Both the position numbers and the translations under genes were made by a program. From NCBI GenBank assembly GCA_018400135.1, contig JAGYNC010000001.1:1-48012 (forward strand): 48,012 nt of DNA. The letters are read 5' to 3'. Of the stretch, positions 1 through 47,866 are shown in pieces. The number at the start of each line of letters is the position of its first letter. Position 1 is the stretch's first letter. This stretch comes from Victivallaceae bacterium. GTDB lineage: Bacteria; Verrucomicrobiota; Lentisphaeria; Victivallales; Victivallaceae. A model generated the notes under the pieces. The model had not been told where the DNA came from and ran no database searches. It was given only the letters and a program-made list of their open reading frames with translations.

Positions 1-1182
1 CGCCGCTCTCCGCGTCGTGGGCACCGTGCCGCATGCCGTTTATAATTTCGTTCCGATGCGCGTTGAAAAGGTGATGAACATGAATACGCTTTTCCGCTGT
101 GACAATTGTGGACAGGATACGCTTGCCGCCACTCCCGATGCCATGCCGGGAGCCAAGTACAGTAATGCTGCCGCCGCTCAAATCATAACGGAATGTTATT
201 TTCATCAGAGCACCATCGGCAACATCGCCCGGCGGCTGAAAGTAAACAAAGGCACGCTGATCGGAATGGCGCACCGTTATGCGGATTTGCTCAAACCGCT
301 GTTTGACCAGACTTTGCTCGAATTGCGAAAATGCGTTTTTCTTCACGCTGACGAAACCGGCTGGTCAATGGACGGCAAACGCTCATATGTCTGGCTTTTC
401 GCCAACGCGCTGTTCCGGGTATTTCTGTTCCGCGATTCCCGCGGCTCCAAGGTGCCTCTGGAAGTTCTGGGACGGGAGAAGCTCATGCTGATTCTGATCG
501 TCGACCGCTATCGCGGCTATCTTCCGTTGCTGGTCGAACGCCAGTTCTGTTTCGTTCATCTTCTGCGCGATGTCAAAAAACTCAAACTGGACTTTCCAGA
601 CGACGCGCAAATCCTGGCATTCTGCGACGATCTGATGCCACAACTGAGCCAAGCCGTCAAGCTGCCGACATTGAGACTGACGCCGGAGGAATATCGCGAC
701 CGGGCGGAGCACATCCGGGAAAGCATCATGGAAATATGCGGCAAACCGTCAAACGATCCCGGTATTCAACATATCCAGGATATTTTCCGGATCAATGAAC
801 ATCAACTTTTTCATTGGGGCAAGAATCCGGATATTCCCTGCGAAAACAATTTCGCGGAACGCAACCTTCGCCCGGTGGTGATTTCACGAAAAACCAGCTT
901 CGGATGCCAGTCTGAAAGAGGAATGCAAACACGGGAAATCCTGATGACCATTCTGCACACCGCCAAGTGTCGGGGCCATGATCCCGCCACATTTCTGGAA
1001 AACGCCCTCAACGTCTTGACCTTGAATCCCAAAGCCGATCTGACGCAATTGCTCTTTTCCGACGCAATTCGTCTCCAGAACGTTGCCTGATTATCGAGCA
1101 ACGCCGGCAATTACGACTACCGGAAAGAGGCGATGCCCACGCATGCTCGAACATCAACGGCCTCGGCGGACTGACCGATTAC
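1..1182 (+). mobile_element. Right-hand part of an IS66-family insertion sequence; proposed right terminus ...CGATTAC at 1176-1182
   Basis: The transposase ends at 1090. IS66 elements end in 5'-GTAA/TTAC-3'. The reverse complement of 1159-1182 reads GTAATCGGTCAGTCCGCCGAGGCC, and AT-rich non-IS sequence starts just after. The left end is off-window, so the inverted repeat cannot be confirmed. Confidence 0.45.
2..1090 (+). CDS. IS66-family transposase (TnpC-like), N-terminus cut by the window edge
   Basis: The frame is open to base 2 with no upstream stop. It has a Zn-ribbon-like CDNCGQD, the HADETGW catalytic region and the C-terminal NNFAERNLRPVVISRKTSFGCQSERG motif typical of IS66 transposases. 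Confidence 0.85.
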   Translation, partial: AALRVVGTVPHAVYNFVPMRVEKVMNMNTLFRCDNCGQDTLAATPDAMPGAKYSNAAAAQIITECYFHQSTIGNIARRLKVNKGTLIGMAHRYADLLKPLFDQTLLELRKCVFLHADETGWSMDGKRSYVWLFANALFRVFLFRDSRGSKVPLEVLGREKLMLILIVDRYRGYLPLLVERQFCFVHLLRDVKKLKLDFPDDAQILAFCDDLMPQLSQAVKLPTLRLTPEEYRDRAEHIRESIMEICGKPSNDPGIQHIQDIFRINEHQLFHWGKNPDIPCENNFAERNLRPVVISRKTSFGCQSERGMQTREILMTILHTAKCRGHDPATFLENALNVLTLNPKADLTQLLFSDAIRLQNVA

Positions 1183-1221
1183 GGCCATTAAACTGAAACA
1201 GTAAAAAATCTCTTTTTTTTC

Positions 1222-1250
1222 TTGCAAATGAAGATTAAGTATGCTATAAT
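1222..1250 (+). promoter_or_regulatory. Near-consensus sigma70-type promoter (TTGCAA, 17-nt spacer, TATAAT)
   Basis: TTGCAA at 1222-1227, a 17-nt spacer, and TATAAT at 1245-1250. It sits in the AT-rich island leader about 600 nt upstream of the primase gene. Confidence 0.3.
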
Positions 1251-1599
1251 ATTAAAAAACCTGTTAGAATCAGGCCAAACGTAAAAAATTAAGGATAGCA
1301 AAAAAAAATGACTTAAAGAAACTATTACGGCACGTTATTAATCAGGAATCGTACGCGCCGGGCAAACCCGTTGGTTTGTTTCGTGTATTCCAACTCCCCT
1401 CCGAAAATCTCGCATGAAAAAATCTGCGATTCTGGTCACTATCTGTGGCTTAGATGATTAGGCGGTTCTTAGCGAACGCAGCCTCACTAGCACATTTGTT
1501 AGTGTTAATTTTATCCTAGGCGAATCCCGCCTCATTAAACTTTTTTGTATTTGTATTAATTATTTGTTATTTATGGCAGTTATTTAGGTGTTGAATATC

Positions 1600-1632
1600 G
1601 TGTTGAAGCTTCCCAGCGGGAAGCTTCAACAC
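1600..1632. repeat. Perfect 15-bp inverted repeat with a 3-nt loop (GTGTTGAAGCTTCCC-AGC-GGGAAGCTTCAACAC)
   Basis: Read directly from the sequence. GTGTTGAA also occurs 12 nt upstream at 1588-1595, and an AT-rich TATTTGT/TTATTT-rich tract precedes it. Confidence 0.8.
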
Positions 1633-1850
1633 GACAGCGTGTCCTATGTGTGGTTCCCTGCCAAAAATGGAACCGCAGATGAAACGTCGGTCGAAAGAAA
1701 TTTTGGTCGTGCCCTCGGGACTATTTCGAGTTCCGGTCGGCAAATGAAAGGCAATGTTTCCGCCCGCGAACTTGGCGGGAAAACCACGTCGGATCGTCCG
1801 GCGATTGCTTCAAGGCTTTGTGGGAAAACAAAAAAATCAAGGAGGATTAA

Positions 1851-3308
1851 ATGAACATTGATACCAGCAAAATAACTAAAAATTGGATGAAAGCCGCTGA
1901 AAAAAATTATGGGAAACCCTTTTTCCCTCAGAAAAGGGGAATGGATAAAATTAATGAAAGCTATTTAGCCGCATTAATCGCGGAAGTCTCGGGCATCAAA
2001 TACTATACGTCCGAAAATAGATTTTATTATTATCACGACGGAACTGGAGAATTTAAGCCCATGACTGACCATTCTGTTCTTGACCTCATTGGAAGAGTGA
2101 TTGTAAAATTGGCAGCCTCCATGGAACAATTTAAAAATATTCCACCTTATTTTTGTACGGCCAGAACACTGGATTCGGTTATAAAGCTAATCAAGGGAAA
2201 ATGTGAAGATTCGACATTTTTCAGTCGCGACCAGCTCCAGCTTCATATCCATTGCGCCAATAAGATGCTGGAATTTGACCGCAAGACGGATCGTTGGATT
2301 GCTAAACCCTTTTCCGCGGCTTATCGGAGCAGAAACAGAAATCCTCTGGCATATGCCCCGCGGGCAAAATGCCCTAAATTTATCGAAAATCTTTTGAAAC
2401 CGGCTATGAATGAAGATGACATCTCTCTTTTCCAGTGTTTTGTCGGACAATGTCTGCTGGGCTATAATTTTGGCCAGATTTTCCTTGTGCTTGTCGGCAT
2501 GGCAGGCGGTGGAAAGTCAACCTCAATCAATATCGTCGAGGGGCTTGTAGGGAAATGGAATTGTGTAGAGTTGCGCATCGAGCACATGGGTAGCAGGTTC
2601 GAAATTGGCCGTATTCACGGGAAAACCCTACTGACCGGCAAAGATATCCAACCCGAGCTATTAAGCGGTTCTTCAGTGGCAAAGCTCAAGTCGCTTACAG
2701 GCGGCGACACGCTCACTGCCGAATTCAAAGGCAGCAATTCCAGACTTGACGTGACTGGCACCGCCAATGTCGCCATCACCTGTAATGGGATTCCCCGATT
2801 CAAGCTGGATCAGGATGTCGATGCGTGGAAAAGACGAATCAGGGTTATTCGCTTTGAAAGACCGCCGACTAAAAATAAAATCGCGAATTTCGATAAGATA
2901 CTGCTTGAGGAAGAAGGGAGCGGTATTTTGAACTGGGCGCTGGAGGGAGCCACGCGCCTTTTGAAAAACGGCGGGCATATTCCCTTGACCATGGAGCAGG
3001 AACTCCGCGTCGATGGAATTATCGACTGTTCGCGCTCTTTCGACGTATTCGCCGACAAGTATATTCATCCAACCGCGAACGCGATAATTTCCACTGCCGA
3101 AGCGGTATCCTTTTACAGCAAGTTTTGCAAAGGAAAAGGATGGGTGCCGATGTCAGAAAGACTCGCCCAAAAAGCTTTTCATGCGTACATGCGAACCCAG
3201 TATGGGGCCTCGCTTCGTACCGATATCAAAGTAATTGACGAAGACGGCAAACTCAAAAACCGCAGAGGTTACGCCGGATATCAAATCACAAACAAAAAAG
3301 GAGTTTGA
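1851..3308 (+). CDS. Phage/plasmid primase-helicase, P4/D5 family (SF3 NTPase)
   Basis: Strong RBS AAGGAGG upstream of the ATG. Walker A is VGMAGGGKST, and the D5_N-like N-terminal region and C-terminal architecture are typical of P4-family primase C-terminal domain proteins. Confidence 0.8.
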   Translation: MNIDTSKITKNWMKAAEKNYGKPFFPQKRGMDKINESYLAALIAEVSGIKYYTSENRFYYYHDGTGEFKPMTDHSVLDLIGRVIVKLAASMEQFKNIPPYFCTARTLDSVIKLIKGKCEDSTFFSRDQLQLHIHCANKMLEFDRKTDRWIAKPFSAAYRSRNRNPLAYAPRAKCPKFIENLLKPAMNEDDISLFQCFVGQCLLGYNFGQIFLVLVGMAGGGKSTSINIVEGLVGKWNCVELRIEHMGSRFEIGRIHGKTLLTGKDIQPELLSGSSVAKLKSLTGGDTLTAEFKGSNSRLDVTGTANVAITCNGIPRFKLDQDVDAWKRRIRVIRFERPPTKNKIANFDKILLEEEGSGILNWALEGATRLLKNGGHIPLTMEQELRVDGIIDCSRSFDVFADKYIHPTANAIISTAEAVSFYSKFCKGKGWVPMSERLAQKAFHAYMRTQYGASLRTDIKVIDEDGKLKNRRGYAGYQITNKKGV

Positions 3309-3310
3309 AA

Positions 3311-4045
3311 ATGCATCCTACTATCGACGACATCGAAAAAACCGTATGTAACGTGTTGAAGCGTAAGACTTCAAGCTCAAGCAGGCGGGAGGAATCAATG
3401 CCTCAAGAACTACTCCCTGCTATTGAGGAACAGGCAAATCTGGCCTTCGCGAGTCAATCATTGCCATCAGGATTACTTTGTCCCGAAGAATCCAACGAGT
3501 ATAAATCCATAAAAAGCGTTCTCGAATATGCGGGGATGCCGACCGATTATTACTGTTTGGATTTTGTCATGAACAACTCTCCGATACGAATGGCTGATCC
3601 TGTCCAGCTGACCATGGCGCAAATAATCGCCTTCTGTCGCGATCTCCGAAGCAATGGCAATAGTTATCCCTTTTTCTTATCCAGCGAGACTTTGTTCTCC
3701 TTGGTAGAGCAAATAGACATGCTCCCCAATATGCTGGGGTTCCACTACCCTGATGCGTTGCGGCGGGAATGTCAATTTCTGGTACCTCGCCCAATCGATG
3801 AAAGAATGCCTATCTCCCAAGTCACTATACCTTTACAGCGCTTCCTGCAAAACCAGCAACACCTGCATTGCCCAAGGATGCTCGGAACGGGACTGTTACT
3901 GTCGCTGTTGCACAGGTTTTTGCGCGGCAACGAAAAGCTGACAAAGGCGGATTGGACGCCGCTCGTGAGAACGGTTGAATCTCCGAACCGTTATGAACCT
4001 CTGGCATTTATTCTCAACGAAACCGTAGATGCATTAACCCCTTAA
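3311..4045 (+). CDS. Hypothetical protein (island cargo)
   Basis: The ATG at 3311 follows RBS AAGGAG at 3297-3302; the track start at 3305 is a TTG. The gene is packed tightly against the primase stop. I recognise no motif. Confidence 0.6.
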   Translation: MHPTIDDIEKTVCNVLKRKTSSSSRREESMPQELLPAIEEQANLAFASQSLPSGLLCPEESNEYKSIKSVLEYAGMPTDYYCLDFVMNNSPIRMADPVQLTMAQIIAFCRDLRSNGNSYPFFLSSETLFSLVEQIDMLPNMLGFHYPDALRRECQFLVPRPIDERMPISQVTIPLQRFLQNQQHLHCPRMLGTGLLLSLLHRFLRGNEKLTKADWTPLVRTVESPNRYEPLAFILNETVDALTP

Positions 4046-4056
4046 AAAAAGGAAAC

Positions 4057-6030
4057 ATGAACATGATAATAACAAAAAGCGCTGGATCAGTGGGGCGGGG
4101 TGTTCTTAAACAACATTTGCAACAAGTTCCATTGAAAAAATATCCCGATTTACAAATATTTCGTGACAACAATCTAGAAAAGGATGCTATTCAATGTTCG
4201 GGAGTCGAGTTAATAATAAGAAACGACATGCACTCCGCTAATCTGCGGAGACGCATGCAAATCTCATTTGATTCTCAAGGCAGCCCGATCTTATGTAACG
4301 GCAGCATAAAAATTCTGCCAAACCAACCGAGCAGTTTTTTTACAGGGTTGTCATTCAACCCATTCTGGCCTCAACCAGAATGCGAACCGACCATTTATCA
4401 ATACGATCAACCAACAAAATACTCGATTTACAACCGGGATTCATCAATTGATGCCAAGTTCATAATGTTGAGAATATGCCAACCGGATGCCAACATAAGT
4501 TACTGCGTGGGTTCTGAGTTTTGGAGCGACAAAGACAAGGAATTCGGGCGTTATCTAGGAAAAGAATGGGATGTATCCGGAGAGTGGAATAGCCGTGAGG
4601 ATTCTATCGACGGCCCATGGAGCCGTGTTCCAATTCAGCAACCTGGTGCTAACATTTTTCGCGCCTTGGATTTTGCGGATACGCCATCTTATTACTTGGA
4701 ATATTACCCCAACGGCAGGAGCTACTCGATCCTGCCGTTACAATTCTATCAGCACCATTCGTATAAATCCCCGCTGAAGCTGTTTGTCCCTCCGCGTCCG
4801 CCATACACGCTAGTCAACTCGCAATATGTGGGCCGCTTTCCTAAGGCAAAAGTGTATCTTACGGATGATTTTTTTTTGGCACTTTTGAATGCACAATGCC
4901 CTGAATATGTTTTCCTGTGGAATCCCGGAGGCAACGCATGGGTTGAAAATCTAGACATAAGCAAATTACACGGGCGCAGGGTAACTTGCCCCGTCGTCCA
5001 AATCCATACCGAAAACCATAATATCGCCCAATCCTACCAATCCGCGCTCAATATGGCGAATAGATTGGAGGCTAGTGGAATTAAAACGGAGTTCTCTGAA
5101 ATCAAATTCCCGCGAAGCCATGATATTGGATTCCAACTACCCGTGGGGCCATGTCTCGAAAGTATTAGAACGAAATCTGGTGATGAAAAAATCATCTCAA
5201 AAAGTGAATTCATAAAACACGCCCAGGCACATGGGGCACATGTTCCAGACCTGTTGAGGCTTGATCGTTTTGGCTGTCTCGATGTTCAGAAACTCGAAAA
5301 AACAATTCCGCTTATTGAAAATTGTGTAGACTCGGGGGAGGTCACGATTATCGTCGAACATAGCAGGATCGATCAAAACATGGTATCAAGCCTGCTGTTT
5401 TCAATATTGATTGGCTCGGGCCGGAATACATTGCCTTTCTGGCGAAAAGTCTCGGATTCACAGCTCTCGTGCTTAGTGTTCCTTGATTTTGACCGTGCTA
5501 AACATTTCATGACCCATTTCCGACGTTATAGCTTGGCGGAAGTGGAGTGTCTGAAAAACTCGATTCACAGCACCAAGATTTTCATGTATCCAGAAAAAGA
5601 TGGATATTCTGAATTCAAAAAATTGGTGGGAATAAAATTACCCAAGGTCGTGATATTTGATGCCGAGTCCCTTAGGCATGGCAACGCGCAGCGAATTCAG
5701 TTACTGAGGAACGTTATGCATTATTGTGCCAGCGAAAATATCGCAGTGGTCATTGTCGTCAGAAGCCAACAGTTACTTCAACTCATACCTTGTCCCGATA
5801 GGCAAATCGAAGTGTGGAGTGACAATTCCGGAGATTCTGCACTTCTGGTCGAAGAAAAAGGAAATCATCAGGGATTTGATCCTTTCAAGATTTCCTTCAA
5901 TAATAAAGACCTCGTAATGGAACCTCTAGACGAAGATGTTCTGGCAAACCTCCCTGAACGCCAGCGTTGGTCAACATATAAGCCTGGTGTTGATCCGGAT
6001 GTTTTGGAAGAACTAAATTCCATGTCATAA
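4057..6030 (+). CDS. Hypothetical 657-aa protein (island cargo), possibly degenerate Toprim-like plus RecA/AAA_25-like regions
   Basis: Long ORF with RBS AAGGAAA, lying 11 nt after the previous stop. There are Walker-B-like hydrophobic-D strands (LVFLDFD, VVIFDAES, IAVVIVV) but no Walker A GKS/T. Confidence 0.65.
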   Translation: MNMIITKSAGSVGRGVLKQHLQQVPLKKYPDLQIFRDNNLEKDAIQCSGVELIIRNDMHSANLRRRMQISFDSQGSPILCNGSIKILPNQPSSFFTGLSFNPFWPQPECEPTIYQYDQPTKYSIYNRDSSIDAKFIMLRICQPDANISYCVGSEFWSDKDKEFGRYLGKEWDVSGEWNSREDSIDGPWSRVPIQQPGANIFRALDFADTPSYYLEYYPNGRSYSILPLQFYQHHSYKSPLKLFVPPRPPYTLVNSQYVGRFPKAKVYLTDDFFLALLNAQCPEYVFLWNPGGNAWVENLDISKLHGRRVTCPVVQIHTENHNIAQSYQSALNMANRLEASGIKTEFSEIKFPRSHDIGFQLPVGPCLESIRTKSGDEKIISKSEFIKHAQAHGAHVPDLLRLDRFGCLDVQKLEKTIPLIENCVDSGEVTIIVEHSRIDQNMVSSLLFSILIGSGRNTLPFWRKVSDSQLSCLVFLDFDRAKHFMTHFRRYSLAEVECLKNSIHSTKIFMYPEKDGYSEFKKLVGIKLPKVVIFDAESLRHGNAQRIQLLRNVMHYCASENIAVVIVVRSQQLLQLIPCPDRQIEVWSDNSGDSALLVEEKGNHQGFDPFKISFNNKDLVMEPLDEDVLANLPERQRWSTYKPGVDPDVLEELNSMS

Positions 6031-6275
6031 ACGTGCCGTAACTCATGCACGCAAAAACAACACAAAAGGAGGTACTCGGAATAAGAAAACAAAATCGGAA
6101 CCAGTAGCAGAACTCACAACAACGCGAGGCAAAAATGAAAGGAACAATCGGGTAAAATGGCTACCCTAGGCCAAAGAACCGAGAGTGGCGTTGAGTGCCG
6201 ATCTCGGTCCGACGACAGATATTCTTCTGTCAAATTTATATTAATAACTCCTTGTGATGGGGAGGCGGAGTTCAG

Positions 6276-6647
6276 GTGAAAACGCTGATGAAAGCACCTG
6301 TCCGTTATACAACTGTGAAACTTATAGGCCGGTTGCTTCAGCCGATTGCAGAAGCCGGGGCTATAAATATTCCAGAACTCAATGAAATTATGGCAAACCT
6401 GCGGCATCTCGCTCAAAAAGGCGAGTTGCTGCCGGATATGCCACCAAAACTTTTGACACAGCGTGAAGTTGCTGAAATGTTAAATATATCATTTCCGCAC
6501 TTTCGTGATTTGGAGCGCGAGGGACATTTTACCTTCCGCAGAAAAATGGTAGGAACTGCCGTTCGCTATTACAATATTGAAGTAGTGAAGTACATTTTAT
6601 CGCTTGACGAAGATGCCAATTTTTCGAGACAGGCTAAAATCGCATAA
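6276..6647 (+). CDS. Small HTH DNA-binding protein, excisionase/AlpA/MerR-like
   Basis: The segment LTQREVAEMLNISFPHFRDLEREGHF is typical of excisionase-family HTH domains. The gene converges on the integrase and is followed by an intrinsic terminator. It uses a GTG start; an alternative ATG lies at 6288. Confidence 0.55.
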   Translation: MKTLMKAPVRYTTVKLIGRLLQPIAEAGAINIPELNEIMANLRHLAQKGELLPDMPPKLLTQREVAEMLNISFPHFRDLEREGHFTFRRKMVGTAVRYYNIEVVKYILSLDEDANFSRQAKIA

Positions 6648-6660
6648 ACTTGTTTGATGG

Positions 6661-6696
6661 GCCTCGGGAAAGAAACACAACTTCCCGAGGCTTTTT
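6661..6696 (+). terminator. Rho-independent terminator (GCCTCGGGAA-loop-TTCCCGAGGC followed by TTTTT)
   Basis: A 10-bp GC-rich stem and a T-run directly follow the HTH gene stop, between the convergent genes. Confidence 0.65.
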
Positions 6697-6710
6697 CATA
6701 TCAGGAAAGT

Positions 6711-8084
6711 TTATCCACCCAAAATGGCGCGAAGCCGTTTCAATAGCCCAGTTGTAGGCTCGGGGTTCTGGGCCAGCAAAGCAAGCGCTTTTCTGATTCG
6801 CTCTTGAGGGCTGTCGCCCGTTGTTGTCATGGTATCGGTAATTGCCGCGATAGCCTGTTTTTGGGAGTCGCTTGAGACATGAGTGTAGAATTTATCGGCT
6901 ATTTTAGAGTCCGTGCCGAGAATCGATAACAGAGTAGATTTCGGGACGTTTGCCTCGGCACAAAACGAACAAAAAGAATGCCTGAGAGAGTGGAAGCCGT
7001 AGACCGTCATTTTTTTTGCTCGACCAGGTACTTTGACCGAAGGCTCCAGCCGAATCCAGCGGATTACGCGCATCACGTCTATGTTCACGAGGTTGTTCCC
7101 AACGTTTTTCCCGAGAGCGTTGGTTTTGTTATAACGGGCAGCGGTTTTCGGACACACATAGAGTTCCTTTCGCCAGCCTTCGGCTTCTCTCAGTGCCTCC
7201 AATAACGGAGGGGCGATGGGAATGGTTACATTCCTGCCGGTCTTGTACTGATGAACGTAAAGCTGGCCGAGGGCAAAATCAATATTTTGCCACTGCATTA
7301 AAACACAATCCTTCATCCGCTGACCTGTATACATACCAATTATATAAATTATTCTGATCTCATTTTTGTTGATCAATTTGCGTTCAGGATTTTTCAATTC
7401 TCTAAGCAAGGCCTGCTCCTGTTCCCTGGTGAAAGCCTGACGGCGAATCACCGATGATTGTTCTTCTCGAACATTGCGCAGCAATGATTTTTTACGGAAG
7501 GGGTTTTCGTGTTCGCAATAGTCTCCCAATACATCGAGGATTTTTCGTAAACGCTTTATCTTGCGGTTGTGGGTATCCACCGCCAGACTATTGGTTCTCA
7601 ACATGGACGCGTATTCTTCGGCAACCGCTGGAGTAATCTCGTTTATCGAGGAAATAATCGTGTGCAGAATTTCTCTGCTGGCAGTTGGAGAAGAGACAAA
7701 ATCCACGAACTCCTTGAAGGTCGATTGATAGGCCAACTGTTCGCTAACGGTATGTGGCATGGCGCGATCAGGACTTGCTGAATATTTTGCCCACGCATCT
7801 TCAATCGGCAGAATTTGACTGCGTTTGGCAAAACCTCTGGCAGCGCTGACATGCGCGGCGACGATTTCCACCTGATTTGCCTTTACAATCGGGATGAGTT
7901 CCTTGGCTTTTCGTTCCGCTTCGTTTTTGTTGTGAGTCTTCAGCGGAACATCTTTTCGCTGACCGTTGATCTGATAGCGAAAATAGTATGTGCCTCCTTT
8001 GACTTTTTGCCTGATTGATCCGAATTCGAGTTTCATGCAAATGACCTTGGTTTGTCTTGACATAAACGCATTCCTGTAAACCAC
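6711..8084 (-). CDS. int: Tyrosine-type site-specific recombinase/integrase
   Basis: Catalytic signature present: YTGQRMKD (R), HSLRHSF (HxxR) and FYTH (Y). It is adjacent to a tRNA 3' end. Alternative ATG starts lie at 8063 and 8036. Confidence 0.9.
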   Translation of the reverse strand: MVYRNAFMSRQTKVICMKLEFGSIRQKVKGGTYYFRYQINGQRKDVPLKTHNKNEAERKAKELIPIVKANQVEIVAAHVSAARGFAKRSQILPIEDAWAKYSASPDRAMPHTVSEQLAYQSTFKEFVDFVSSPTASREILHTIISSINEITPAVAEEYASMLRTNSLAVDTHNRKIKRLRKILDVLGDYCEHENPFRKKSLLRNVREEQSSVIRRQAFTREQEQALLRELKNPERKLINKNEIRIIYIIGMYTGQRMKDCVLMQWQNIDFALGQLYVHQYKTGRNVTIPIAPPLLEALREAEGWRKELYVCPKTAARYNKTNALGKNVGNNLVNIDVMRVIRWIRLEPSVKVPGRAKKMTVYGFHSLRHSFCSFCAEANVPKSTLLSILGTDSKIADKFYTHVSSDSQKQAIAAITDTMTTTGDSPQERIRKALALLAQNPEPTTGLLKRLRAILGG

Positions 8085-8174
8085 AGGTTACAGCACAATA
8101 TATCACGATCATGGACTATGCAAAGGCAAAGTGGGGAAAAGTGGGTCAAAAAAGAAGAAATTTGAGGCTAAAAA

Positions 8175-8264
8175 TGGCGGAGAGAGAGGGATTCGAACCC
8201 TCGGTGGAGTTACCCCCACACAGCATTTCCAATGCTGCGCCTTCGACCACTCGGCCATCTCTCC
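8175..8264 (-). tRNA. tRNA-Ser (anticodon GGA), 90 nt with a long variable arm and encoded CCA
   Basis: The reverse complement reads GGAGAGATGGCCGAGTGGTCGAAGGCGCAGCATTGGAAATGCTG...GAGGGTTCGAATCCCTCTCTCTCCGCCA. The acceptor stem is GGAGAGA/TCTCTCC, the anticodon loop is TTGGAAA, and the T-loop is GGTTCGAATCC. Confidence 0.93.
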
Positions 8265-8366
8265 GTATTGGGGAGTGTGTTGAAAATTCACGAGCGCATA
8301 ATATAGCGCATTGGCTTAAATAAACAAGAAAAGAAAGGGCTTGGTCGTGAGAAATCCGGGGGGCGT

Positions 8367-8470
8367 GTAATGCCTCACTCTTTCCTTTGGTTCGGGGTCA
8401 ATACTACACAGCCTCGTCGTTACTCCTCGGGTGTCGTAGCCTCGACCCCACCCAAAGAGTGAGGTATTAC
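8367..8470 (+). repeat. Family-A MITE-like hairpin repeat, copy A1 (intact)
   Basis: GTAATGCCTCACTCTTT...AAAGAGTGAGGTATTAC forms a 17-bp terminal inverted repeat. The 8-bp flanks are GGGGGCGT and AGGGGTGT (6/8 identical). Confidence 0.8.
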
Positions 8471-11660: not shown

Positions 11661-11762
11661 AACAACCTCTTTACGAACTTAATGTAAAATATAAGATAAT
11701 ATATCTGGTTATTATTTTTTCAAGGATTTACACAATTTTTATGAAAGTTGAATTCAACAGCA

Positions 11763-16790: not shown

Positions 16791-16912
16791 TCTTGCTCCC
16801 TAGTTGTAATATTAAATACCTAAACGGTGGACTATTGTGGAAAACAGTTAATTTAATACTTTTTTATTAATTACCAAATTTTAAGGCGCTTTTTATTGAA
16901 GAAACTCAAATC

Positions 16913-17009
16913 GTAATCCTTTGGGTGGGGGCGAAGCTACGACACTCGAGGAGAAACGACGAGGCTGTGTAGTATTGACCCCGAACCAAAGAAAAGAGTG
17001 AGGCTTTAC
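16913..17009 (-). repeat. Family-A repeat, copy A3 (inverted orientation; 8-nt deletion in one terminus)
   Basis: GTAATCCTTTGGGTGGGGGCGAAGCTACGACACTCGAGGAGAAACGACGAGGCTGTGTAGTATTGACCCCGAACCAAAGAAAAGAGTGAGGCTTTAC is the reverse complement of the A consensus. Confidence 0.8.
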
Positions 17010-17094
17010 TGAGCGATTACCAAATCTCTGATAACTTAAGAAAAAAGTTGATTTATTTTAATAGTTATGTTATAATTATGGAATATTCGAAAAG

Positions 17095-36193: not shown

Positions 36194-36297
36194 GTAACCC
36201 CTCACTCTTTCCTTTGGATCGGGGTCAATACTACACAGCCTCATCGTTCCTCCTCGGGTGTCGTAGCCTCGACCCCACCCAAAGAGTGAGGCATTAC
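36194..36297 (+). repeat. Family-A MITE-like repeat, copy A4 (intact)
   Basis: GTAACCCCTCACTCTTT...AAAGAGTGAGGCATTAC, flanked by GATTATTT and AATTATTT (7/8 identical). Confidence 0.85.
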
Positions 36298-36398: not shown

Positions 36399-36500
36399 GC
36401 AACACCTCACTCTTTTTCTACTCGTTGCCCGCTTTCATCGCCGTTCTCCTGAACCGATATGATAGTCCCCCCGACAAATCAGGATTGAGTGAGGCGCTAC
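36399..36500 (+). repeat. Family-B MITE-like repeat, copy B2 (intact)
   Basis: GCAACACCTCACTCTTTTTCTAC...GATTGAGTGAGGCGCTAC, flanked by AAAATCTG and GAAATCTT (6/8 identical). Confidence 0.8.
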
Positions 36501-36611
36501 GAAATCTTAATTTTATCCGTCTTATTTTGTAAATTTGATTTGAAGCAACGGCAATTTCGGGATAAACTATCTGAAGTATAAATCAAAACAAAAAATTACA
36601 AAGGAGATATC

Positions 36612-44825: not shown

Positions 44826-44897
44826 GTAATCGCTCACTCTTTGGGCGTCGAGGCTGCGACACCCGAGGAGGAACGATTGGTGCTCTGTAAAGTCAAT
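44826..44897 (-). repeat. Family-A repeat, copy A5 (decayed; inverted orientation)
   Basis: GTAATCGCTCACTCTTTGGGCGTCGAGGCTGCGACACCCGAGGAGGAACGA matches the reverse-complement A consensus with a 3-nt deletion. The remainder is degenerate. Confidence 0.65.
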
Positions 44898-47730: not shown

Positions 47731-47866
47731 GAAATTGTTTCCTTTTTTAAGTTGTATTTTTAAGAGAAAGGAGAGTTTTGAAATTGTCTCAAACTGTGAA
47801 TCTAACGGGTTGAGACGTAAAATTCAAATACAATTAACAAAAATTGTGGAACGGAGGGAATTCTTG

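Follow-up and report, generated by a model that had tools for sequence, protein, structure and literature searches.

The contig JAGYNC010000001.1 of a Victivallaceae bacterium (assembly GCA_018400135.1) begins within an insertion sequence (IS) of the IS66 family and carries, farther along, copies of two short repeats, A and B, that are treated here as MITEs (miniature inverted-repeat transposable elements). The window analyzed is this entire contig, 48,012 bp in length, and the left flank of the IS lies outside the assembly. The host is an uncultured, Victivallales-like member of the Lentisphaerota; among named proteins, the best matches to its RimO come from Lentisphaerota/Victivallaceae, at 55-57% identity. 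Open reading frame (ORF) analysis reveals one frame that is open from base 2 to a TGA codon at 1088-1090 and encodes the C-terminal portion of a transposase (Table 1), which matches the Pfam family PF03050 (DDE_Tnp_IS66; 1.4e-30, 107 bits, with a cut-off of 23.1). Against the NCBIfam model NF033517 the truncated protein, in which model positions 1 to ~43 are absent, scores 178.7 bits with a cut-off of 180, whereas full-length relatives pass this cut-off with 194-243 bits (202-206 for P0003 and P0020). The transposases searched match the IS66 model only, along with a weak ISL3 match, and a profile search returned no ISLre2 or ISKra4 model matches for them. In an alignment of 18 sequences, the motifs ADET (D117), DRYxGY (D168), and NNxAER (E286) are invariant, and each is intact in the window copy; from what is known of the IS66 family, these residues would form the DDE triad. 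A scan of contigs for relatives of this copy yielded one match only, L001, at 74% identity; an exact look-up of the neighboring protein of 485 amino acids returned no record. No second IS66 transposase was found in the window. The IS is an ordinary new member of the IS66 family, and the profile matches and the frame open from base 2 bear out the first-pass annotation of this stretch, made from the sequence alone, in describing it as an IS66 element truncated by the window.

Downstream of the stop codon, the sequence runs to ...CTCGGCGGACTGACCGATTAC, which is followed directly by GGCCATTA. The 18 nt of the right terminal inverted repeat (IRR), GTAATCGGTCAGTCCGCC, begin with 5′-GTAA and are identical to both the left (IRL) and the right repeats of L003 and L005, which are relatives at 68-86% identity. 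L002, L007, L008, and L093 likewise share the first 14 nt (GTAATCGGTCAGTC), from which L001 departs at a single position. Relatives that keep this terminus span 62-86% transposase identity to P0003, and the remainder of the non-coding end has diverged among them; L001, too, retains the terminus, although the non-coding sequence leading up to it has diverged. Within the window, the terminus at 1165-1182 is the single copy at three or fewer mismatches. Both ends, each starting with GTAA, are visible in L002-L005 and L093. These comparisons place the right end of the IS at 1182. A TTAC at 1111-1114 was considered as the IS end and rejected, the conserved repeat being located at the equivalent of 1165-1182 in all relatives. 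The 8 bp that directly follow the IS would represent the right copy of a target duplication, and perfect 8-bp duplications flank the same-clade relatives L002 (ACGGAACC) and L093 (CCGGGAAA, in a contig of 5.69 Mb), as well as L011, L017, L026, L027, and L034. Directly after 1182, the G+C content falls from ~0.53 to 0.34-0.41. The right end at 1182 with its GTAA start, the 8-bp duplications made by IS66 elements, and the switch to AT-rich composition had all been proposed in the first-pass annotation, and each of these proposals holds.

The window transposase aligns from residue ~179/180 of relatives that are 539-543 amino acids long, and therefore 178 transposase codons are missing. Complete relatives measure 2,119-2,171 bp, giving an expected full IS length of ~2.12-2.17 kb, such that ~985 bp would have been lost at the contig end, comprising the left repeat, a DUF6788 gene, and the 178 codons. 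By analogy with these relatives, the complete transposase would bind the 18-nt terminal repeats and insert the element through 8-bp staggered cuts, and this copy appears to have landed in AT-rich intergenic DNA. Alternatively, the window copy might be a dead, 5′-truncated remnant rather than a complete element that was divided during assembly. The left part of the copy is not visible, and L001/L009 (74% identical) provides the example of a truly 5′-truncated copy residing inside unrelated sequence. However, no stop interrupts the frame between the start of the contig and the TGA codon, all invariant residues are intact, including the candidate DDE triad, and the contig breaks within the element, as is expected where an assembler meets a multi-copy repeat. 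We therefore favor a complete element interrupted by the end of the assembly and regard a remnant as unlikely, though worth bearing in mind.

In every complete close relative, the 5′ end of the transposase gene is overlapped by a preceding gene of ~100-109 codons that encodes a DUF6788 protein; such genes are located in L002 (216-530), L003 (442-756), L005 (250-576), L023 (204-533), and L093 (2675-3004). The DUF6788 protein contains a CxxC...CxxC-like motif, and its gene stands where tnpA and tnpB would be; neither of these genes was present in any complete same-clade relative inspected. A homologous ORF occurs in 60 of the 96 loci fetched, and distant relatives of 1.55-1.7 kb (e.g., L084, L068) are single-ORF elements. 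Our literature search found no paper on DUF6788. The subgroup is defined by a DDE transposase gene of ~540 codons together with an overlapping DUF6788 gene of ~105 codons, which replaces tnpA and tnpB.

This organization sets the subgroup apart from two known groups of IS66-family elements. The canonical group (IS66, IS679, ISPpa5, ISPpa7) shares the transposase family and the 8-bp target duplication (PMC3281130), but its members have a tnpA-tnpB-tnpC layout and measure ~2.5-2.8 kb, whereas the window relatives are ~2.1-2.2 kb in length and combine DUF6788 with tnpC; judged from complete same-clade relatives, the accessory genes tnpA and tnpB of the canonical group are lacking. The ISBst12 group (e.g., ISBst12, ISDge4) is closer in that it has a DDE_Tnp_IS66 transposase without tnpA or tnpB, GTAA repeats with TCAG at positions 9-12, and 8-bp direct repeats, and the experimentally active ISDge4 of Deinococcus exhibits the terminus GTAACTGCTCAGCA and an 8-bp repeat (PMC12898284). 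The window clade differs from this group in its longer transposase of ~540 amino acids, in the upstream overlapping DUF6788 gene, and in the fixed insertion distance from promoters described below. As judged from the DUF6788-carrying relatives of the same clade, its members are not the single transposase ORFs without an accessory gene that typify the ISBst12 group.

The A and B repeats of the window have IS66-type ends (GTAA...TCAC) and ~8-bp duplications and lack coding capacity, in which respects they are like the MITEs of classical pairs of MITE and parent IS. That they begin with GTAA and are flanked by 8-bp duplications had been claimed from the sequence, and this is the case, although the duplications are only rough (Table 1). 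Every MITE end retains CTCACTCT. These features support the assignment of the repeats as IS66-type non-autonomous elements of the terminal-repeat group GTAAnnCCTCACTCTTT.

The first-pass annotation also proposed that the right end of the IS resembles the MITE termini. The reverse complement of 1168-1182, GTAATCGGTCAGTCC, differs from the A5 terminus GTAATCGCTCACTCT at 3 positions (12/15) and from the A consensus GTAATGCCTCACTCT at 5 (10/15, or 10/17 overall), and we reproduced both of the counts given. To these we compared a control set of 80 related metagenome loci plus others, in which both ends are defined for 48-54 distinct elements. Elements that fall outside the clade of the window IS contribute 79 distinct control termini, of which 59 agree with the A consensus at 10 or more of 15 positions and 18 agree with A5 at 12 or more. 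The extra matches to A5 fall at positions 5-7, and positions 5-8 vary freely, even between both ends of one element. Positions 1-4, 9-11, and 13 are invariant or nearly so in 71 distinct termini, which defines a subfamily signature, GTAA-nnnn-TCA-(G>C)-T. The likeness between IS and MITEs exceeds the expectation for random sequence but is no greater than that shown by any other member of the subfamily. The proposal was correct in its counts, but the resemblance is no closer than that of the 59 control termini.

The inner part of the repeat, at positions 14-22, is more discriminating. The two ends of the same element agree there at 7.61 of 9 positions, and ends of different elements at 3.40 of 9. 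The window IS matches the ten MITE ends at just 1-3 of 9 positions, which is below the between-element average, whereas the right end of L023 matches the same ten ends at 4-6 of 9. Beyond the repeats, similarity between the MITEs and either window positions 1-1250 or same-clade left ends is confined to chance words of 7-10 nt. Near-identical terminal repeats and often shared subterminal sequence characterize classical pairs of MITE and parent IS, and the window IS has neither; the duplication length and target preference that it does share with the MITEs are common to the whole clade. The claim that this IS is the autonomous partner of the A and B repeats is unsupported by these comparisons, and annotations should refrain from assigning the MITEs to it.

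Better matches are found in other clades. The transposases of the clades represented by L023, P0102, P0110, and L011 are 45-51% identical to that of the window, and their elements have GTAAnnnCTCACTCTTTT termini. L023/P0250, P0102, and P0110 are 74-94% identical to one another and 45-47% identical to the window transposase; their left termini read G(T/A)AATnnCTCACTCTTTTCGG, and the right end of P0110 diverges after GTAATCCCTCACTCT. The L023 terminus, G(T/A)AATGCCTCACTCTTTTCGG, equals the MITE-A terminus over 17 of 17 nt, the termini of P0102 and P0110 are GTAATGGCTCACTCTTTTCGG and GTAATCCCTCACTCTTTTCGG, and the right end of L011, GTAACACGTCACTCTTTTTTCT, is close to the left end of MITE B. None of these candidates matches the inner repeat perfectly, and therefore only the group membership of the partner is concluded: as judged from the termini, the MITE partner would belong to the "TCACTCTTT" group and would lie elsewhere than on the 48-kb contig.

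We consequently read the IS at 1-1182, with a probability of roughly 0.85, as a truncated copy of an element from the DUF6788-carrying IS66 subgroup, whose likeness to the MITEs is the signature of the subfamily. The MITEs most likely depend for their movement on another, related transposase of the IS66 subfamily, one that this contig does not encode. Several observations weigh against this reading. The left end and target duplication of the window copy are not visible, and its completeness and activity are therefore deduced indirectly. Moreover, some elements differ between their own two ends, either at position 12 (L010/L011, G versus C) or in the inner repeat (L012, L090), so that cross-mobilization by a heterologous transposase is conceivable. 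The L023-type ends are perfect over 17 nt only, their 4-6 of 9 matches at positions 14-22 being under the within-element norm, and the 48 kb of this genome that were searched contain no IS with MITE-type termini. Finally, the window IS and the MITEs fall into the same 38-41-nt class of promoter spacing, which fits a single broad transposase clade that includes the window's own.

This spacing emerged from the flanks of the elements. A predicted outward-facing sigma-70-like promoter (TTGCAA and TATAAT separated by 17 nt, the -10 box being preceded by TG) is located beside the window IS, and a consensus scan of 1091-1900 identified no other promoter-like site. Its -35 hexamer begins at the 40th base past the last IS base, leaving 39 bp between them. 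The same arrangement was seen beside the relatives L001, L002, L005, and L012. We assembled 118 distinct flanks of 75 nt or more that contain no IS-end motif, with the left flanks of P0072 and P0039 loci left out; an outward sigma-70-like site scoring at least 9/12 was counted as a hit, and distance was counted between the final base of the IS and the position at which the -35 hexamer starts. Clade 1, consisting of the ~2.1-kb DUF6788-carrying elements and including both the window's element and the L023 group, shows hits at 38-41 nt in 21 of 47 flanks (0.88 expected) and none at 18-20 nt. Clade 2, consisting of more distant elements of which only some carry DUF6788, shows hits at 18-20 nt in 20 of 71 flanks (0.21 expected) and none at 38-41 nt. 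The loci concerned are L001, L002, L005, L011-L013, L020, L021, L090-L093, L099, L100, L102, L117, and L118 for the longer distance, and L028, L029, L032, L033, L039, L041, L043, L048, L051, L053, L067, L068, L073, L074, L077, L078, L084, and L086 for the shorter. The distance of the window copy is typical of its clade. Inward-facing promoters form no peak in the 118 flanks.

The promoter-distance signal is statistically strong; it derives from a simple consensus scan and metagenomic contigs, in which the two flanks of an element may stem from different copies. Promoter hits beside the P0072-type ends L097 and L098 were rejected as an IS's own left end adjoining a right end, and although L098 was removed by the IS-end-motif filter, L097, with a degenerate left end, is still counted among the 21 clade 1 positives. 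The promoter occurs on either side of the element, and the spacing is present in elements with perfect duplications (L002, L011, L093), the promoter beside L093 preceding a URO-D gene. A host sequence beginning GGATTAGAGAGGATTATTTCACC... abuts the right end of L090 (from 2229) and the left end of L091 (to 228), which come from different samples; this may reflect two insertions at one site, one in each orientation, or an inversion between copies.

A comparable behavior is known from the TnGBS conjugative elements, the ISLre2 family, and the ISKra4 group, which have prokaryotic Mutator-like transposases and insert 15-17 bp upstream of sigma-A promoters (PMC3942029). The IS66 subfamily resembles them in keeping a constant distance to the -35 box of a sigma-A/sigma-70 promoter that lies downstream of the insertion, and both orientations are likewise used by ISKra4-group elements whose repeats are near-perfect (PMC3942029). 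Their transposases are of an unrelated family, however, and the spacings of 18-20 or 38-41 nt differ from 15-17 bp. Although the fixed-distance promoter enrichment is present, the Mutator-like (p-MULT 3/4) transposase signature is absent from the IS66 elements, and the likeness is one of shared behavior, not membership. A literature search, with ISfinder records outside its scope, found no report of promoter targeting by IS66 elements, and PMC3942029 does not mention IS66.

We give even odds to the proposal that this large IS66 subfamily and its MITEs choose their targets by reading sigma-70 promoters, inserting 38-41 or 18-20 nt before the -35 box in either orientation. The spacings of the two clades lie ~20 nt apart, about two helical turns, and the elements might be tethered to RNA polymerase bound at the promoter or, alternatively, to the region of the UP element and the -35 box. 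If the proposal is true, promoter targeting would have had an independent origin outside the unrelated TnGBS, ISLre2, and ISKra4 transposases from which it is otherwise known; a second unrelated family with two clade-specific spacings would allow promoter reading by DDE transposases to be approached by comparison, and the targeting would explain the harmless build-up of these elements and their MITEs upstream of genes. A different origin of the spacing, namely a preference for AT-rich or bent DNA combined with purifying selection that leaves harmless intergenic insertions, draws on the AT-rich flanks, many with a G+C content of 0.21-0.31, and on the intergenic survival bias that is general among IS elements (PMC13548323). 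Neither selection nor AT preference is expected to yield a precision of ±1-2 nt, however, or two clade-specific spacings without cross-over, and the lack of a peak for inward-facing promoters and the single site occupied in both orientations (L090/L091) also speak against this explanation, which we judge to be improbable.

Several of the MITE flanks exhibit the same arrangement as the window IS, with a TTGnnn located 38-39 nt from the MITE end, followed after 16-17 nt by a -10-like box; the sites beside A3 and B1 score 10/12 and those beside A1, A6, and B2 score 8/12. This spacing supports mobilization of the MITEs by the IS66 subfamily generally and does not separate the window IS from the L023 group. 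The view of the first-pass annotation, under which the transposase of the window IS would mobilize the A and B MITEs although their terminal repeats differ from its own, can appeal to this spacing, to the GTAA...TCA.T termini and 8-bp duplications that occur together on one contig, and to single elements whose two ends differ at positions 5-8 and occasionally at position 12, but it is very improbable given the many control termini that match the MITE consensus equally well or better, the poor agreement of the inner repeat, the lack of subterminal similarity, the 17/17 matches offered by other clades, and the retention of CTCACTCT at all MITE ends, unlike the GTAATCGGTCAGTC of the window clade, which is invariant down to 62-65% transposase identity with L001 (74%, one substitution) as the sole exception.

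Table 1. Features of the IS, the MITEs, and the neighboring region in the window
Feature	Position	Strand	Remarks
Right-hand ~55% of IS66-family insertion sequence	1-1182	+	cut at base 1 by contig end
IS66-family DDE transposase, C-terminal 362 codons and TGA stop	2-1090	+	
CxxC motif in transposase (C33/C36)		+	
Candidate catalytic residue D117	350-352	+	18-sequence alignment
Candidate catalytic residue D168	503-505	+	18-sequence alignment
Candidate catalytic residue E286	857-859	+	18-sequence alignment
Right non-coding end of IS	1091-1182	+	between stop codon and conserved terminal repeat
Right terminal inverted repeat (IRR)	1165-1182	-	minus strand reads GTAATCGGTCAGTCCGCC
Presumptive right copy of target duplication	1183-1190		GGCCATTA; 8 bp abutting IS end
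Predicted sigma-70-like promoter, outward from IS	1222-1250	+	10/12
DUF5906 (primase/helicase-like) protein	1851-3308		
Tyrosine integrase	6714-8084	-	adjoins tRNA-Ser(GGA)
tRNA-Ser(GGA)	8175-8264	-	
MITE A1 flank with promoter-like site	8295-8366		
MITE copy A1, 104 bp	8367-8470	+	termini GTAATGCCTCACTCTTT and GTAATACCTCACTCTTT; flanking 8 bp match 6/8
MITE B1 flank with promoter-like site	11690-11762		
MITE A3 flank with promoter-like site	17010-17080		
MITE copy A4, 104 bp	36194-36297	+	flanking 8 bp match 7/8
MITE copy B2, 102 bp	36399-36500	+	flanking 8 bp match 6/8
MITE B2 flank with promoter-like site	36501-36570		
Terminus of partial MITE copy A5	44826-44840	+	terminus GTAATCGCTCACTCT; MITE end closest to IS end according to first-pass annotation
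MITE A6 flank with promoter-like site	47795-47866		

Several further arrangements of ends were observed. Directly before MITE A3 (16905-17009, minus strand) stands GTAATCGCTCA, which corresponds to the initial 11 nt of an A5-type terminus (17006-17020, minus strand), and the other end of A3 is short of ~7 nt of the terminal repeat (...CCCAAAGGATTAC), which suggests that A3 inserted into, or recombined with, another MITE end. The contig, which starts within the IS, stops ~40-65 nt past MITE A6 (47867-~47971), such that both of its ends lie at or near repeats. Among the related loci, just 7-11 bp separate a right IS end from the left IS end that comes after it in L023 (62-110), L098 (~2030-2090), and L104 (~1670-1725); these junctions could represent head-to-tail tandems, cycles in the assembly, or the circle junctions that a copy-out/paste-in pathway produces. 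The P0103-type IS66 element (L107-L116) has the same two neighbors, encoding proteins of 102 and 319 amino acids, in contigs of at least 8 different samples, which points to a single insertion that is fixed or very widespread.

Beyond the IS, positions 1851-8264 constitute a region resembling an integrative element, with MITE A1 located just past it, at 8367. In addition to the DUF5906 protein and the tyrosine integrase, the region encodes three proteins that have no Pfam match. No att repeat of the tRNA-Ser 3′ end of at least 10 nt was found within 1-6700, and the far boundary of the region may lie beyond the IS.

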